Sequence record: MW598459
Origin: Escherichia phage vB_EcoM_RZ
Reading direction: 5' to 3' (one strand)
DNA length: 64,000 nucleotides
The position numbers and the translations under genes are program-made. Every line of letters starts with the position of its first letter. Within the stretch, counting starts at the first letter, position 1. Under the pieces are notes generated by a model, which saw only the letters and a program-made list of their open reading frames with translations, had not been told where the DNA came from and did no database searches. This document shows positions 19,728-58,563 of the stretch, in pieces.

Positions 19728-20561
19728 TTATGAATTTCTCCATACTTTCTGTGAAGAAAATCTTTTGCCTTTTGAAAAAAACTGCTGAAGGGGGAGTAAT
19801 ACCACATTTGCCCAGTCACTGGGCTTGATTTCAGTAATAGTACCTTTTATATTGCCAGGTATATATGCTTTAATCATCTGGTCAGCCCCTTTAAATCCCT
19901 TCACCTTTGACCAATCAATCTTCAGATGAGTCTTGTTCGTAATCGTAGGAGTATTAGCATATTGCTTAAGAAGTTCCTCAAGGAACTCTTGACGTGCCTT
20001 CGGTGGAATATAGTGCAAGTTCAAACCATACATCAAATTGTGCTTACCTAGCCCAAGATAAATGATTAACGGATATTTGTCCCAGTACGGAAGAGTATCC
20101 TTATGCTTTGCATCATAGATATAAGCATAAATCTTACCCGGTTGAGGTTTAGCCGTTACGTGGCCACGAACTGATTTCTTAATTGTCTCAGCGAACCATC
20201 TGGCAGATTTGGTGTTGCTTGCTGCGCCTTCGTTAGCAATCTTATCTCTTATGCTCTTTCTAAAGCTATTCACCATTATCAGCTGGCGTTCAGCCTTCGT
20301 AAGTTTACCGGCGGGTTTCTTTTTGAGCTTGGATACTTTATAAGCAGTCTGAATTCTCGAATGATATCTTGACATGCTTTTGGTAAAGGTCGAATAGTTG
20401 ATTCCTTTCTCTTCAGCAAACTTCTTCGAGGTCATTCCCTTTTCTTTTGCTGTATAAAATTCAACCCCTATTTCAACCCATTGTTGTTCGGATTTACTGG
20501 GTTTTGGACCTGGTTTATCTACAGATTCATTGATAAATGTAAAAATACTCATCCTTTCCAT
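19728..20561 (-). CDS. 2: DNA end protector protein gp2
   Basis: 277 aa (T4 gp2 274 aa), basic, between gene 3 and gene 4 region. Confidence 0.7.
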
Positions 20562-21277
20562 CCTTCTATAAAATTAATCAAATCATTTTTTAAATAGTAT
20601 GGTAAGGTTTCTGTATAGCCATCGACCATAATATCTTTATTCAAATAACCTCTGTCTTTTATATATAATACAGATATTGCGGATTCTAACATTTTGGCTT
20701 GTGCACCCAGTTCAAATTCTCGATAATATAATTTGGAACTAATGCATTTGGAAAAATGATTTTGCTGCCACAATCTAAAATCATGATTGGAAGTTATACC
20801 ATACTTTAAAGCAGTTCCGCCCGGATATTCTATTTTATTAACATAAACAATAGCAGGTTTCTTTGCGTTAAATCCTTTGTGACAACAGTTTGGACATCCT
20901 TTGTTTTTTGTTGTAAAGTTGTTTAGATTTGTAATCCAACTGGTTGAACATGTAGAACACTTTATATAGGCTTTTGATTTTGTAAAAGTTGAATATGTGG
21001 TATCCCATTTATCAAAACTATACAATGGATTCACGGAATTTATTCTTGTGATTGCATCTAATTCAGATATTAATTTGCTTTCACCATAAGAACGTTTTAA
21101 ATTACAATTAGAACACCAACTTTTTGTTTTTAACTTATGCTTTAAAACAGTTGCTTTGTATTTGCATGTTTCTTCACATATAAAGCACTTTACAAATATC
21201 AAAGTTTTTGATTTATTAAAATCGCCTTGTCCCACTATCTCGCCATTTGTGATGTTAAAATCTGAACAATCGTACAT
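20549..21277 (-). CDS. inserted Zn-ribbon protein with C-terminal GIY-YIG-like nuclease motifs
   Basis: 242 aa; CxxC pairs ([22 protein letters not shown]); then AIVYV-x11-KYGIT, downstream R and E; no gene at this position in T4. Confidence 0.5.
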
Positions 21278-21729
21278 TATAAACCCTTATATCCCATTTT
21301 TCTAAGCGCATCTTCAGTAATCAATCTAAACTGGATGCCCATTTTATCGGCTACGGCCTGCGCTGCTTTCCACTTATCCTTGTTAACGGCCCAAGTGTAC
21401 ATTTCGTTCATAAACCTCTTCTTACTTGCGGCGGTCGTATTGACTGGTTTTGCCGGCGGCCTTGTTTCCTTTTTGGGTTTGACCTCAAAGAAAAACTGTT
21501 GTCCATTTGAGAATTTCACCCACATATCCATGTAATATCTGCGTTTTTTACCATCCGCATTACTGAAATATGGAATAATTACGGTCTCAGAGCCCCATTG
21601 TATCACATCTGGATGATTATCTAACCAATTAAATACAAATTTTTCCCAATTTGACCTGTATGTGATTTTCTTCCAGTCTCCTTTGTACTTGGCAACGTTT
21701 TTTGGCTGCCACTTCCCGGAGTATGCCAT
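21277..21729 (-). CDS. 4: head completion protein gp4
   Basis: 150 aa (T4 gp4 150 aa); divergent from gene 53; late promoter just upstream. Confidence 0.75.
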   Translation of the reverse strand: MAYSGKWQPKNVAKYKGDWKKITYRSNWEKFVFNWLDNHPDVIQWGSETVIIPYFSNADGKKRRYYMDMWVKFSNGQQFFFEVKPKKETRPPAKPVNTTAASKKRFMNEMYTWAVNKDKWKAAQAVADKMGIQFRLITEDALRKMGYKGL

Positions 21730-21757: not shown

Positions 21758-21765
21758 TATTTATA
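21758..21765 (-). promoter_or_regulatory. late promoter (TATAAATA) for gene 4
   Basis: Plus TATTTATA = minus TATAAATA about 30 nt upstream of gp4 ATG. Confidence 0.5.
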
Positions 21766-40952: not shown

Positions 40953-43259
<2,307 letters not shown>

Positions 43260-43288
43260 AAGTAAAGCAAACTATTAGAGGACTCAAA

Positions 43289-45268
43289 ATGGCTTTATTA
43301 TCTCCGGGCATTGAGCTCAAAGAAACAACGGTCCAAAGCACTGTTGTTCGTAACGCGACGGGTCGTGCGGCGCTGGTTGGTAAATTCCAGTGGGGCCCAG
43401 CTTTCCAGGTAACTCAGATTACAAACGAAGTTGAACTTGTTGATTTGTTTGGTGGTCCGAATAATGAAACAGCAGATTACTTTATGAGTGGGATGAACTT
43501 CCTGCAATATGGTAATGACCTCCGTACTGTACGTGTTGTTAACCGTGACGAAGCTAAAAACGCATCCCCGATTGCTGGCAATATTGAAACTACCATTGTA
43601 ACTGCTGGTACAAACTATGCTGTCGGTGATGTTATTCAGGTTAAACACAACCAGACTGTTGTTGAACCAGCTGGCCGTGTGACCAAGGTCGATGTTGATG
43701 GTAAAATTCTGGCAATCTTTATTCCTACCAATAAGATTATTGCATTTGCTAAAACTATTAATCAGTATCCTAATTTGGGCAGTGCATGGACTGCAGAAGT
43801 TACGACCACTTCTTCCGGTGTATCTGGTACCATCACTGTCGGGAAAATTGTTACCGATTCTGGCATTCTGTTGACTGAAGCAGAAAACAGTGAAGAAGCA
43901 ATTACTTCTCTGGAATTCCAGGCATCATTGGCAAAATATGCAATGCCGGGTGTTGTTGCTCTTTATCCTGGTGAAATTGGTTCGACTCTTGAAGTTGAAA
44001 TCGTATCCAAAGCTGAATTTGAAAAAGGCGCAACTGCAAATCTGGATATTTTCCCCGGTGGTGGTTCCCGCGCTTCTATAGCTCGTGCAGTGTTTAACTA
44101 TGGTCCTCAGACCGAAAACCAATATGCAATTATCGTTCGCCGCGATGGTGCAATCGTCGAAAACGTTGTTTTGTCTACTAAGCAGGGCGAAAAAGATGTT
44201 TATGGTAATAACATTTACCTGGATGACTACTTTGCAAAAGGTACTTCCAACTACATCTATGCAACATCTCGCAACTGGCCTGTAGGCTTCAGTGGTATCA
44301 TCAATCTGTCTGGTGGTATTTCTGCAAACGATAAGATTACCGCTGGTGATTTGATGCAAGGTTGGGACCTGTTCGCTGACCGTGAAGCTCTGCATATCAA
44401 CCTGCTTATCGCTGGTGCTTGTGCTGGTGAAGGTGATGCGACCGCTTCCACTGTTCAGAAGCACGTAGTTTCTATTGCTGACGAACGTCAGGATTGCTTG
44501 GCATTCATTTCCCCGCCGAAAGGTCTGTTGGTTAACGTTCCTCTGACCCGTGCAGTGGATAACCTGATTGACTGGCGTACAGGTGCTGGTGCATTTGATA
44601 CTGATAACATGAATATCAGCACGACTTATGCAGCGATTGATGGCAACTATAAATATCAGTATGATAAATATAACGACGTTAACCGTTGGGTTCCTCTGGC
44701 AGCTGATATGGCTGGACTGTGTGCTCGTACTGATGATGTTTCTCAGCCTTGGATGTCTCCGGCAGGTTATAATCGTGGTCAGATTCTGAACGTTCTGAAA
44801 TTGGCTGTTGAACCACGTCAGACCCAACGTGACCGCATGTATCAGGAAGCTATCAACCCGGTTGTTGGTTTCGCAGGTGGTGATGGTTTTGTTCTGTATG
44901 GTGATAAGACTGCAACTAAAGTTCCATCTCCGATGGACCATATCAACGTTCGCCGTCTTACGAATATGCTGAAGAAAAATATCGGTGACGCATCCAAATA
45001 TAAACTGTTTGAGCTTAACGATAACTTCACTCGTGCATCATTCCGTATGGAAACTTCTCAATACTTGGATGGTATTCGTGCGCTCGGTGGCATTTATGAA
45101 GGTCGTGTGGTTTGTGATACTACTAACAACACCCCGGCGGTTATTGACCGAAATGAGTTTGTTGCTAGCATTTATTATAAACCTGCCCGCAGTATTAACT
45201 ATATACAGCTTAATTTCGTTGCCACTAGCACTGGTGCTGATTTCGATGAGCTGATTGGGCCACAATAA
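43289..45268 (+). CDS. 18: tail sheath protein gp18
   Basis: 659 aa (T4 gp18 659 aa); MALLSPGIELKETT... N-terminus. Confidence 0.95.
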   Translation: MALLSPGIELKETTVQSTVVRNATGRAALVGKFQWGPAFQVTQITNEVELVDLFGGPNNETADYFMSGMNFLQYGNDLRTVRVVNRDEAKNASPIAGNIETTIVTAGTNYAVGDVIQVKHNQTVVEPAGRVTKVDVDGKILAIFIPTNKIIAFAKTINQYPNLGSAWTAEVTTTSSGVSGTITVGKIVTDSGILLTEAENSEEAITSLEFQASLAKYAMPGVVALYPGEIGSTLEVEIVSKAEFEKGATANLDIFPGGGSRASIARAVFNYGPQTENQYAIIVRRDGAIVENVVLSTKQGEKDVYGNNIYLDDYFAKGTSNYIYATSRNWPVGFSGIINLSGGISANDKITAGDLMQGWDLFADREALHINLLIAGACAGEGDATASTVQKHVVSIADERQDCLAFISPPKGLLVNVPLTRAVDNLIDWRTGAGAFDTDNMNISTTYAAIDGNYKYQYDKYNDVNRWVPLAADMAGLCARTDDVSQPWMSPAGYNRGQILNVLKLAVEPRQTQRDRMYQEAINPVVGFAGGDGFVLYGDKTATKVPSPMDHINVRRLTNMLKKNIGDASKYKLFELNDNFTRASFRMETSQYLDGIRALGGIYEGRVVCDTTNNTPAVIDRNEFVASIYYKPARSINYIQLNFVATSTGADFDELIGPQ

Positions 45269-45300
45269 GACTTTACTTCTGATTTAACTTGGGTTATAAT

Positions 45301-45323
45301 GCGCGTATAATATAAATACGCGC
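45301..45323 (+). promoter_or_regulatory. late promoter TATAAATA embedded in a perfect hairpin, upstream of HNH gene
   Basis: GCGCGTATAATATAAATACGCGC: 8-bp arms enclose TATAAATA (45311-45318). Confidence 0.5.
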
Positions 45324-45335
45324 AAGGATTTACAA

Positions 45336-45941
45336 GTGATTATTTCTAAATTTGTTGAAGTTAAAATACGAAATCATGCAAAATGGTGGAGTGAATACTT
45401 AGGTAAAACTCTAACATACCATGATGTAATTTCTGTTCCAGTTGAACAAATGCCAGATAATAGTAATAAAAAGATTGAGTGTTCCTGTGATGAATGTGGG
45501 GTACATTTTGAGCGCGGCATTCAGCTGCTTCGTCGTGTTGATAAACATTTATGTAAAGCATGTTCAAGAAAAGATATTGGACAAAAGAATGTTATTGCGC
45601 AAGGTGGTGTACCAAGACCATGGCAACGCGGTGAAAAACATCATAGCTGGAAGGGTAATAAGCGCGAATTCTATTTGTATGCTCAACGCGTTCATGCATT
45701 GACAAGAGCAAAACATCTAAAGAATATTTGGTCAACATGGGAAAATGCAGATAAGATAGGAAAATGTGGAGAAGATGGTGCATATCAACTTGACCACAAA
45801 GTTTCTATTGCATATGGATTTTATAATCACATACCAGAGACTGTTATCGCTTCGCTCAACAATTTAGAAATAGTCACTTGGGAATCTAATAGGTCCAAAG
45901 GAAAATCAAATAGTATTGACTTATGGGATATATTATCCTGA
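45336..45941 (+). CDS. HNH homing endonuclease inserted between genes 18 and 19 (GTG start inferred)
   Basis: HNH motif YQLDHKVSIAYGF..NLEIVTWESNRSKG plus Cys clusters CSCDECG..CKAC; SD AAGGA 7 nt before GTG. Confidence 0.7.
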   Translation: MIISKFVEVKIRNHAKWWSEYLGKTLTYHDVISVPVEQMPDNSNKKIECSCDECGVHFERGIQLLRRVDKHLCKACSRKDIGQKNVIAQGGVPRPWQRGEKHHSWKGNKREFYLYAQRVHALTRAKHLKNIWSTWENADKIGKCGEDGAYQLDHKVSIAYGFYNHIPETVIASLNNLEIVTWESNRSKGKSNSIDLWDILS

Positions 45942-45965
45942 CAGTAAATGTAATTAAGCAGTAAA

Positions 45966-46018
45966 CCGTAGAACCATTATACAATGCTATAAATAAAAGC
46001 ATATCATCGGTTCTACGG
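45966..46018 (+). promoter_or_regulatory. long hairpin enclosing a late promoter (TATAAATA at 45988-45995)
   Basis: Arms CCGTAGAACC / GGTTCTACGG (10 bp) around ATTATACAATGCTATAAATAAAAGCATATCAT. Confidence 0.5.
45977..46001 (-). promoter_or_regulatory. possible degenerate middle promoter on minus strand (antisense to HNH gene)
   Basis: Minus strand TGCTTTT(A)-12/13 bp-TATAAT-GGTTCTACGG; box differs from MotA consensus at one position. Confidence 0.25.
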
Positions 46019-46076
46019 ACTCCTCAGAGCTCCTCCAGCGACCTAAATACATTTATTGATGAATCATATTACCTAG

Positions 46077-46084
46077 TATAAATA
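46077..46084 (+). promoter_or_regulatory. late promoter TATAAATA for gene 19
   Basis: Exact TATAAATA about 50 nt upstream of gp19 start. Confidence 0.55.
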
Positions 46085-46136
46085 CATGCATCAGGGACGC
46101 GTTCGCGCGACCTGTGTCTATAAAGAGGATTCCTTA

Positions 46137-46628
46137 ATGGAGTTGACCGATATCACACGCGCTTTCGAATCCGGCGACTTTGCTCGCCCTAACCTGTTCG
46201 AAGTCGAAATCCCATTCCTGGGTAAAAACTTTGCTTTCCATTGTAAAGCAGCCCCGATGCCTGCTGGCATTGTAGAAAAAGTTCCTGTTGGTTACATGAA
46301 CCGTAAAATCAACGTTGCGGGCGACCGTACATTTGATGACTGGACTATTACGATTTATAACGACGATGCTCATAAAGTTCGTCAAGCAATTGTTGATTGG
46401 CAAAATCTGTGTCACGGTATGACTAACGAAATCACCGGTGCAGCTCCTGCTGATTATAAGAAAACCGCTACTGTCCGCCAGTTCCATCGTGATGGCAAGA
46501 CCGTTACGAAAGAAGTTGTTATTACCGGCATGTGGCCAACCAACGTTGGGGAAGTCCAGATGGATTGGGACTCCAATAACGAAATTGAAACGTTCGAAGC
46601 GACGTTCGCAATTGACTGGTGGGAATAA
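46137..46628 (+). CDS. 19: tail tube protein gp19
   Basis: Start at MELTDITRAF gives 163 aa, the T4 gp19 length. Confidence 0.9.
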   Translation: MELTDITRAFESGDFARPNLFEVEIPFLGKNFAFHCKAAPMPAGIVEKVPVGYMNRKINVAGDRTFDDWTITIYNDDAHKVRQAIVDWQNLCHGMTNEITGAAPADYKKTATVRQFHRDGKTVTKEVVITGMWPTNVGEVQMDWDSNNEIETFEATFAIDWWE

Positions 46629-57009: not shown

Positions 57010-57027
57010 GATGAACCTCGGTTAGTG

Positions 57028-57035
57028 TATAAATA
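57028..57035 (+). promoter_or_regulatory. late promoter TATAAATA for uvsW
   Basis: Exact TATAAATA about 28 nt upstream of uvsW ATG. Confidence 0.55.
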
Positions 57036-57063
57036 TAGATATATTTATTACCTTGGAATCATC

Positions 57064-58563
57064 ATGGATATTAAAATCAACTTTCTAAATTTTAGTCACG
57101 TGCATGTTGAATGTGAAGATGGAATCTTCTACGAACTCCGTGATTACTTCAGCTTCGAAGCTGAAAACTATCGCTTCAATCCAAAGTTCAAGCAGGGAGT
57201 TTGGGACGGACGAATCCGCCTCCTGGATTACAACCGTAAATTACCATACGGTTTGGTTAATCAAATTAAAAAGTTCGCTGACCAGTTTGGCTATTCATTC
57301 TGGATTGACCCACAAATCACCGAGAAAGAAGAAATCTCTCGCGAAGAATTCAACAAATGGGTCGAGTCAAAAGAAATCTATTCAGGCAATACCAAGATAA
57401 CGCCCCATTGGTATCAATCTGACGCCGTATATGATGGTCTGGTCAACAGAAGAAAGATTCTGAACTTACCTACGTCTGCAGGTAAAAGCCTCATCCAGGC
57501 GCTTCTGGCGCGATATTATCTCGAGAACTATGAAGGCAAGGTGCTTATCCTTGTTCCTACAACTGCGCTTGTTGACCAGATGATTAATGACTTTGTTGAT
57601 TATCGGCTTTTCCCTCGTGCAGCTTGTCTGGGTATTCGTTCTGGGACTAAACGCGATTCTGATGCGATGATTTATGTATCGACTTATCAGACGGCTGTAA
57701 AACAACCTAAAGAATGGTTTGAACAGTTTGGCCAGTTTATGAATGACGAATGCCACATGGCTACAGGTAAATCGATTTCGACGGTTATCGAAGGCCTTAC
57801 GAATTGCATGTTTAAATTTGGTCTGTCAGGTTCACTCCGTGATGGCAAAGCCAACCTTATGCAATATATGGGTCTGTTTGGTGATATCTTTAAACCAGTA
57901 TCAACATCTAAATTAATGGAAGATGGCCAGGTTACTGACCTTAAAATAAATAGTATTTTCCTTCGTTACCCTGATGAATTCACCGTTAAAATGAAAGGTA
58001 AAACTTATCAGGATGAAATCAAGGTAATTACAAAAGCTACACGCAGAAATAAATGGGTAACAAACCTTGCCCTCAAGCTTTCTAAAAAAGATGAAAACGT
58101 CTTTTTGATGTTTAAGAATATCGAGCACGGTAAATCGATGTTTGAAATGATTAAGGAAGCTGGTCATGAAAAAGTGTATTATGTTTCTGGGGAAGTCGAT
58201 ACCGAAACTCGTAATGCTCTGAAGGTCATGGCAGAGAATGGAAAGGGAATTATTGTTGTAGCTTCATATGGTGTATTCTCGACGGGGATTTCCGTTAAAA
58301 ACCTCCATCATATTATTTTCGCTCACCCAGTCAAGTCAAAGGTAATTGTACTCCAGACAATTGGTCGTGTGCTTCGAAAACATGAATCCAAATCGACCGC
58401 AAACGTGTGGGACATTGTGGATGATATGGGGGTCAAACCCAAATCAGCAAACGCTAAAAAGAAATATGTTCATATTAACTTTGCGCTTAAACATGCACTA
58501 GAACGTATTCAGCGGTATGCAGACGAAAAATTCAATTATGTAATTAAACAGGTGGAAATATAA
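57064..58563 (+). CDS. uvsW: UvsW RNA-DNA/DNA-DNA helicase
   Basis: Start at MDIKINF as in T4 UvsW; helicase motifs LPTSAGKS and DECH (MNDECHMATG). Confidence 0.9.
   Translation: MDIKINFLNFSHVHVECEDGIFYELRDYFSFEAENYRFNPKFKQGVWDGRIRLLDYNRKLPYGLVNQIKKFADQFGYSFWIDPQITEKEEISREEFNKWVESKEIYSGNTKITPHWYQSDAVYDGLVNRRKILNLPTSAGKSLIQALLARYYLENYEGKVLILVPTTALVDQMINDFVDYRLFPRAACLGIRSGTKRDSDAMIYVSTYQTAVKQPKEWFEQFGQFMNDECHMATGKSISTVIEGLTNCMFKFGLSGSLRDGKANLMQYMGLFGDIFKPVSTSKLMEDGQVTDLKINSIFLRYPDEFTVKMKGKTYQDEIKVITKATRRNKWVTNLALKLSKKDENVFLMFKNIEHGKSMFEMIKEAGHEKVYYVSGEVDTETRNALKVMAENGKGIIVVASYGVFSTGISVKNLHHIIFAHPVKSKVIVLQTIGRVLRKHESKSTANVWDIVDDMGVKPKSANAKKKYVHINFALKHALERIQRYADEKFNYVIKQVEI

Follow-up and report, generated by a model that had tools for sequence, protein, structure and literature searches.

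The gene between tail sheath and tail tube

The 64,000-nucleotide stretch of Escherichia phage vB_EcoM_RZ (sequence record MW598459) analysed here, which we call the window, belongs to a T4-like phage of the genus Gaprivervirus whose nearest records are DK-13 (99.0% identical over 2 kb), TH57 (96%) and VR7 (95%). On its + strand a 201-amino acid open reading frame (ORF; 45336-45941) lies between the gene for the tail sheath protein gp18 (43289-45268) and the gene for the tail tube protein gp19 (46137-46628), and the PHROG assignments of both structural proteins are unambiguous. An initial annotation, made from the sequence alone, had described the ORF as an HNH endonuclease gene in a mobile cassette, bracketed by two hairpins that each enclose the late-promoter box TATAAATA, with a third such box ahead of gene 19. 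The ORF, both hairpins and all three boxes are present as described. Our comparative analysis makes it likely that the ORF, a member of the ORF19.1 family, is a free-standing gene of the homing-endonuclease type, specific to the sheath-tube junction and carrying its own hairpin-promoter leader, which would insulate the nuclease. The features of the locus (lengths in nucleotides, nt) are as follows.

45137..45268, + strand: 3' end of gene 18, left flank of a divergent (co-conversion-like) tract; synonymous, mosaic substitutions abundant
45269..45929, + strand: inserted cassette proper, ~660 nt, from alignments with SP18, P479, VR20, VR25, EAWsc9 and TH44
45272..45300, + strand: early (sigma-70) promoter-like TTTACT-N17-TATAAT, 10/12 in the promoter scan
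45300..45324, + strand: hairpin A, 9-bp perfect stem, 7-nt loop, -12.3 kcal/mol
45311..45318, + strand: late-promoter box TATAAATA within the hairpin A loop
45336..45941, + strand: ORF '19.1', 201 amino acids, GTG start; phrog_5104, E 1.7e-76
45966..46018, + strand: hairpin B, 10-bp arms and an inner 5-bp stem
45988-45995, + strand: late promoter TATAAATA enclosed by hairpin B, predicted start ~46001
45976..46003, - strand: middle-promoter-like ATATGCTTTT...N13...TATAAT, from a pattern scan
46019..46056, + strand: 38-nt insert-linked patch that differs from insert-free relatives, right end of the divergent tract
46077-46084, + strand: proximal gene-19 late promoter TATAAATA, predicted start ~46090
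46092-46114, + strand: stem-loop CAGG..CGCG-UUCG-CGCG..CCUG, 3' of the proximal gene-19 late promoter

A search of 45100-46300 against Rfam gave no family match.

The protein belongs to the family represented by T6 'ORF19.1' and VR7 'gp19.1', with which it shares 59% and 97.5% amino acid identity, the position between genes 18 and 19, and the GTG start; the T6 and VR7 records state no function for it. The T6 insert, like that of the window, starts right after the gene-18 stop and ends ahead of a native hairpin and late promoter, whereas its leader differs in having a C(UUCG)G hairpin and no recognisable promoter. Between the window and VR7 there are 22 synonymous and 4 non-synonymous codon differences, which points to purifying selection; on this evidence the ORF is intact and functional rather than decaying. 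A full-length profile search over clusters formed at 50% identity recovered 3,887 representative clusters at a threshold of E<=1e-3, many of them with one domain alone in common with ORF19.1, and 769 at E<=1e-10. No paralog of the nuclease was found elsewhere in the window.

The HNH (beta-beta-alpha-Me) motif comprises a histidine that acts as general base and usually follows an aspartate or glutamate, a structural asparagine, and a metal-binding asparagine or histidine. An alignment of 23 homologs of the window protein contains the invariant block Y-Q-L-D153-H154-K...N176-L...W-x-x-N185-R-x-K, in which D153-H154, N176 and N185 stay invariant across 21-23 homologs down to 34% identity. In the AlphaFold model (pLDDT 82) these residues lie on a strand-strand-helix unit, as in the HNH fold. 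The N-terminal part holds a Cys4 treble-clef zinc module, of which C51, C54 and C73 are invariant and C76 near-invariant among the 23 homologs, C76 being invariant in the 21-member set. In other viral contigs the C-terminal module of ORF19.1 is fused to NUMOD3, a resolvase-type helix-turn-helix or DUF4379, which are modular DNA-binding parts typical of homing endonucleases. Because of the invariant residues, the modelled fold and these fusions, we regard an HNH-like nuclease with an N-terminal zinc module as a well-motivated inference.

Curated libraries do not recognise this nuclease. Pfam assigned no HNH family to the ORF protein, giving only a sub-threshold treble-clef zinc finger, and an HNH family to just one of the 23 homologs, at E 0.078. 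NCBIfam returned no match, nor did sequence and profile searches of the PDB; the best Foldseek hit to the PDB had an E of 0.5, and a PHROG 'endonuclease VII' match was weak (E 0.0013). None of these searches tied the protein significantly to a curated HNH model, whether of sequence or of structure. A close known comparison is with the Mob-class HNH endonucleases of T4, such as MobE, which are likewise small nuclease genes placed sporadically between conserved essential genes, with exchanged flanking DNA. In Mob-class proteins the HNH_3 domain is N-terminal and the zinc finger C-terminal (PMC10055350), whereas in ORF19.1 the order is reversed, with the zinc module first and the nuclease last. 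Given this reversal and the lack of any HNH_3 match by Pfam, we rejected a Mob-class identity.

Recombinational entry at a single locus

The boundaries of the insertion were defined by comparing the junction with that of P479, an insert-free phage otherwise near-identical to the window. Read along the window, the differences from P479 are distributed as follows.

43200-45136: 10 differences (0.5%)
45137-45239: 17 differences
~45269-45929: ~660-nt insert
46019-46056: 24 differences
46057 onward: ~1%

The cassette begins directly after the gp18 TAA, and the last ORF codons and the bases that follow already align with the native sequence of insert-free phages. The insert is held in one divergent tract of ~920 bp (45137-46056), with ~130 bp of exchanged flank on each side. 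At the right end of this tract, the 38-nt patch differs from every insert-free relative at 24 of its 38 positions, with identity resuming from 46057, and, among 50,697 phage records, is present in DK-13, VR7, TH57 and DCP80 only. The alignments show that the cassette entered the window lineage by recombination, as a single tract of this length. A sharply bounded tract of this kind is what double-strand-break-initiated homing leaves behind, and we read it as a homing-type signature.

The distribution of the gene is sporadic. In the public phage collection the ORF is present in four Gaprivervirus records (the window, DK-13, VR7 and TH57), and about 25 close relatives are without it; together with the tract against P479, this supports the proposed reading as an acquired nuclease cassette. 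A T6 query that covers the ORF is matched to at least 80% by 70 Tequatrovirus records; most of the remainder, T4 and T2 included, match its flanks alone, and an RB5-type variant also exists in this genus. Presence and absence thus alternate at one locus among close relatives while the flanking genes remain undisrupted, which is how a homing gene is expected to behave.

Across greater distances the gene keeps its place. All IMG/VR homologs that align from residue 1 sit between sheath and tube genes, down to 27% identity, at which point gp18 itself is just 36-47% identical. The same holds for six of six further GenBank loci, from Karamvirus, Krischvirus, Klebsiella, Acinetobacter (Twarogvirinae) and Sinorhizobium (Emdodecavirus) phages. 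Nearly every full-length homolog that could be placed is at the sheath-tube junction, out to Acinetobacter, Sinorhizobium and aquatic phages. In enterobacterial phages the nuclease is far more diverged than the neighbouring genes, and its divergence is out of step with theirs, as these identities to the window proteins show.

VR26: nuclease 35%, gp18 98%
DCP80: nuclease 53%, gp18 92%
UP19 (Dhakavirus): nuclease 65%, gp18 91%
QL01-like contig (Dhakavirus-type): nuclease 48%, gp18 89%

Divergent alleles in near-identical backbones, together with the tract against P479 and the patch confined to carriers, amount to co-converted flanks and an incongruent history.

Two of these phages deserve separate mention. 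The VR26 homolog (2070-2962 of its locus; 228 amino acids, 35% identity) occupies a different point of the same 18-19 intergenic region, 3' of a late promoter resembling that of hairpin B. It stands in place of the proximal promoter, the UUCG hairpin and the Shine-Dalgarno (SD) region of gene 19, with its stop codon 4 nt ahead of the gene-19 ATG. The spacer is the one occupied in the window, but the insertion is an independent one. In DCP80 the variant of the ORF (2108-2758 of its locus) is chimeric. The N-terminal half is of the 10-residue-insertion type, as in RB5 and the QL01-like contig, and the C-terminal 47 residues depart from the window protein at just one or two positions, which points to recombination inside the nuclease gene. 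The DCP80 record also contains a run of N and a rearrangement within gene 19.

The last ~110-130 nt of gene 18 are by far the most polymorphic part of that gene in 11 relatives, although the protein is conserved. Nearly all of these polymorphisms are synonymous, multi-base codon swaps such as CGC/AGG (Arg) and AGT/TCG (Ser) among them, and they form mosaic patterns unrelated to the rest of the gene.

The cassette leader and the native gene-19 signals

The element TTTACT-N17-TATAAT at 45272-45300 is the sole match in the 64 kb (0.29 expected) to TTTACW-N17-TAYWAT, the T4/PST early-promoter consensus (PMC4122927). This early promoter, whose -10 overlaps hairpin A, was missed in the initial annotation and is more conserved than the late box in the hairpin loop. 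Hairpin A overlaps the final base of the -10 with its 5' arm, and its 3' arm ends on the first base of the SD. With standard spacing, the early promoter is predicted to start transcription at ~45307, inside the 5' arm, and the loop promoter TATAAATA at ~45324, so that the late leader would be 12 nt long with the SD at its 5' end. With the -10 overlapping the 5' arm and the late box lying in the loop, the geometry predicts that transcripts initiated within the leader lack an intact 5' arm. Hairpin A is not found in any of the six insert-free Gapriverviruses examined and must therefore have come with the insert, in agreement with the cassette-borne upstream hairpin originally proposed.

We compared eight leaders of this type (window, VR7, DCP80, UP19, QL01-like, KMB17, EnC07 and Roth67), which use four unrelated stem sequences, given here by their 5' arms.

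TGCGCGTAT: window, VR7, DCP80, UP19, QL01-like
ATCGGCTAC: KMB17
ATCGCACGTACA: EnC07
ATTGCACATA: Roth67

All eight have a -35 of TTTAC(A/T) or TGTACA, a divergent spacer of exactly 17 nt and a -10 of TA(T/C)AAT. In each, the 5' arm of a perfect 9-12-bp hairpin with a loop of 3-8 nt starts within the final 1-2 bases of the -10; 0-3 nt separate the stem from the SD, and the GTG lies 7-9 nt beyond. Conservation of structure and position without conservation of sequence speaks for both a working nucleic-acid stem and a working promoter in the leader, and this cross-genus comparison is the strongest of our new results. The late box in the loop is lineage-specific: it occurs in the window, DK-13, VR7 and TH57, deviates by one mismatch in DCP80, and is lacking in the UP19, QL01-like, KMB17, EnC07, Roth67 and T6 leaders. 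An Acinetobacter phage combines a hairpin with TATAAATA independently, the T6 and phiS leaders have a hairpin alone, and in some aquatic phages the hairpin is missing and the start is coupled. A scan of IMG/VR for the hairpin A sequence recovered the QL01-like genome only, and a metagenome-wide pattern scan gave nothing except chance matches in GC-rich bacterial contigs.

The core stem of hairpin A touches the first SD base alone. The GUG could be covered by a weak outer helix with the arms ACUUG/CAAGU, which in UP19 read GCUUUA/UAAAGU with one compensatory pair; we did not rely on this helix, as it spans a 9x9 internal loop and was not recovered in DCP80 or T6.

The signals downstream of the ORF have a different origin. 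Hairpin B, with identical outer stems and its enclosed TATAAATA, is present in six of six insert-free Gapriverviruses examined, as are the proximal TATAAATA and the UUCG stem-loop ahead of gene 19. T4 and T6 share the same pattern of a native hairpin followed by two late promoters, and Karamvirus and Klebsiella phages have hairpin-plus-late-promoter units ahead of gene 19. Since insert-free relatives carry them too, hairpin B and both downstream late promoters are, by this comparison, native gene-19 signals and not part of the cassette. The proposal that the cassette brought the downstream hairpin with its promoter and restores late expression of gene 19 is not supported: neither this hairpin nor the third box came with the insert, which lies upstream of intact gene-19 signals, and therefore nothing needed restoring.

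The stems of hairpin B are invariant between two alleles whose immediate flanks are ~50% diverged. Two substitutions in the inner stem, A/G at 45984 and C/T at 45987, change Watson-Crick pairs to G-U and so remain paired on the + strand RNA only. This combination of invariant stems amid diverged flanks and retained G-U pairing clearly marks hairpin B as functional; most likely, it would cap read-through RNA of gene 18 and also contain the distal gene-19 promoter. The stem-loop at 46092-46114 starts ~3 nt past the predicted start of the proximal gene-19 late transcript and is conserved in all Gapriverviruses examined, with substitutions within it in P479 and TH57. It is probably a 5' mRNA-stabilising hairpin.

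The middle promoter noted on the opposite strand of hairpin B is a real pattern match and a putative promoter, but it too is native, as the site is conserved in insert-free phages. Antisense matches of this MotA-box/-10 type also occur elsewhere in the + strand late block, the three being at 45976-46003, 54901 and 59877 (-). In the window as a whole, nine of ten MotA-box/-10 matches are on the minus strand (1.9 expected). These middle-promoter-like sites may be sources of antisense 'anti-late' RNA.

Proposed insulation of the nuclease and its alternatives

Based on these comparisons, we propose the following model for the element. In genomes that lack the insert, the protein would cut close to the 3' end of gene 18 or between genes 18 and 19, and repair from a co-infecting carrier of the insert would copy the gene together with ~130 bp of flank per side. 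The gene would be expressed from its own leader, in which the early promoter has its -10 over the 5' arm of a 9-bp hairpin, and this hairpin reaches to the SD of a weak GTG start. RNA made from either of the two internal promoters (~45307, ~45324) would start inside or after the 5' arm, so that hairpin A could not form, whereas read-through RNA from the strong late gene-18 promoter (43252) would contain and fold it. Hairpin A would then uncouple the nuclease from gene-18 mRNA, either as a protective 3' stem for gene-18 RNA, by hindering ribosome loading at the abutting SD, or by both routes. As a 3' stem it would stand 32 nt past the gene-18 stop, much as native hairpin B does in insert-free phages, where the distance is 35-38 nt. 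Insulation of the nuclease from gene-18 read-through RNA, by a translational and/or 3'-end mechanism, is in our view the best reading of the leader.

Hairpin-controlled expression has precedents among T-even and related phages. According to PMC2988022, control by a promoter inside a hairpin operates for I-TevI, I-TevII, I-TevIII, segB, Aeh1 mobE and the T4 genes e and soc. As in the window leader, the position of the promoter means that only transcripts initiated upstream fold the hairpin, and Aeh1 mobE offers hairpin-based control of a Mob-family gene. In those systems, however, the stem pairs with the ribosome-binding site (RBS) and the internal promoter is late, whereas the stem of hairpin A abuts the SD and its conserved internal promoter is early-type, by which the temporal logic would be inverted. 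The same paper describes, for seg43(25) of Aeromonas phage 25, a very stable hairpin just upstream of an RBS that it does not sequester, its function being unresolved. This hairpin resembles hairpin A in abutting rather than covering the RBS of a homing endonuclease gene, but the nuclease is of the GIY-YIG Seg family and the passage on it describes no promoter overlap. The leader is also made of the same parts as the PeSL element, in which a sigma-70-like early promoter TTTACW-N17-TAYWAT, a stem-loop and an SD stand beside variable ORFs (PMC4122927). The PeSL stem-loop lies just upstream of the promoter, whereas hairpin A lies downstream of it and overlaps the -10; as the order in the window is promoter, stem-loop, SD, identity with PeSL was rejected.

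Canonical promoter-in-hairpin arrangements, with the 3' arm over an SD or ATG, occur elsewhere in the window at 21758 (-) and 57028 (+). At 21758-21765 (-), a late promoter TATAAATA lies within 7-bp arms (AGCCTCC/GGAGGCT), the 3' one of them lying over the SD of ORF 21277-21729 (-), which encodes a TnsA-like endonuclease N-terminal domain protein (Pfam PF08722, E 1.9e-22). Directly 3' of that gene, ORF 20549-21277 (-; 242 amino acids) contains Cys-rich treble-clef repeats (DUF4379, E 4.6e-4, sub-cutoff) and, by eye, a GIY-YIG/T5orf172-like stretch, and may be another mobile nuclease gene. At 57028-57080 (+), a late promoter lies within 8-bp arms (CATGATGA/TCATCATG), and the 3' arm covers an internal ATG at ~57062 of ORF 57025-58563 (512 amino acids), which by eye has the look of a UvsW-type helicase.

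Several observations weigh against the proposed homing gene with an insulating leader. The nuclease of very distant phages diverges about as much as the neighbouring genes do, which fits a long vertical residence too. The mosaic at the 3' end of gp18 does not partition cleanly by insert status; no target site can therefore be named, and a candidate cleavage target there was set aside. Hairpin A has no U-tract, hence is not a canonical terminator, and with no + strand terminator call either, we rejected it as an intrinsic terminator. Finally, partition-function folding in eight lineages gave an RBS accessibility of 0.41-0.59 for own-promoter transcripts and 0.33-0.48 for read-through RNA, a slight gain consistent in sign, and start-codon accessibility changed inconsistently across lineages. 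As the effect on the RBS is small and that on the start codon inconsistent, folding does not demonstrate translational masking by hairpin A, which remains plausible.

The similar divergence of nuclease (27-37% identity) and gp18/19/20 (29-47%) at the same locus in very distant phages could also mean that the ORF is an old domesticated accessory gene of the sheath-tube junction. Such a gene would be mostly vertical, repeatedly lost and swapped by ordinary recombination without homing, and could serve, for example, in early nicking or degradation of competitor or host DNA. An intact ORF under purifying selection, a conserved early-type promoter suggestive of a timed function and the sheer size of the family (the 3,887 clusters) would all suit it. 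However, most close relatives in two genera are without the ORF, which is therefore dispensable, near-identical backbones hold several highly divergent alleles and, with VR26, two insertion points, and the sharply bounded tract against P479 looks like a homing product. We consider a domesticated gene improbable on balance. For the leader, the strongest competitor is that hairpin A is a 3'-end or stability element of gene-18 mRNA, which any insertion at this place must supply and which has no part in nuclease regulation. In every genome examined a stable hairpin does stand within ~40 nt of the end of gene 18, either a native one (SP18, T4) or one brought by the cassette (window, T6, phiS, Mokit, phiM7). 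The lack of clear support for RBS masking from folding also favours this explanation. A pure 3' element could sit anywhere, however, and the four sequence versions are locked between the -10, which they overlap by 1-2 nt, and the SD, 0-3 nt away. We therefore think of a purely 3'-end role as possible but unlikely, though the least unlikely of the alternatives.

A palindrome that overlaps both predicted promoters might instead be a double-stranded DNA operator for a dimeric repressor, possibly the nuclease itself, and autorepression has a precedent in I-TevI acting on its own late promoter (PMC2988022). Yet it is the symmetry and not the sequence that is conserved, and the loop varies from 3 to 8 nt between lineages, which fits a nucleic-acid stem better; an operator has in our opinion a slim chance of being correct. 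Chance alone could be invoked for hairpins and promoter boxes in AT-rich intergenic DNA, since the window contains 80 inverted repeats of at least 9 nt within 50 nt of each other, and 8-mers are expected to recur. Against this, TATAAATA is enriched fourfold in the window (21 observed, 5.2 expected), and perfect arms of at least 9 bp enclose just 2 of the 21 sites, namely those of hairpins A and B. With the invariance of the hairpin B stems amid diverged flanks and the recurrence of hairpin A geometry with unrelated sequences, the comparative data effectively refute a chance origin.

The ORF family is already known, as is the regulatory principle of hairpin-controlled homing-endonuclease-type genes of T-even phages. 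What is modestly new is a locus-locked, Pfam-invisible family and a leader with an early promoter in a hairpin, nothing more, and the current understanding of phage mobile elements is unchanged by the finding. A broader statement, which we offer only tentatively and regard as doubtful in full, is that ORF19.1 forms an uncurated HNH-like clade tied to the sheath-tube junction across the T4 superfamily, whose enterobacterial members have an undescribed early-promoter-in-hairpin leader that abuts the SD and inverts the logic of I-TevI. If this is true, the nuclease would be made from its own hairpin-free transcripts and silenced on abundant late gene-18 read-through RNA.

The analysis suggests a function for a 'hypothetical protein' shared by hundreds of T4-like genomes, and flags a nuclease family that curated libraries have missed. 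The window (or DK-13) and P479 form a clean natural near-isogenic pair for work on homing and on co-conversion tracts in a structural-gene region. With its arrangement kept by four unrelated stems, the leader would be a compact case of an inserted gene insulated from a very strongly expressed neighbour.

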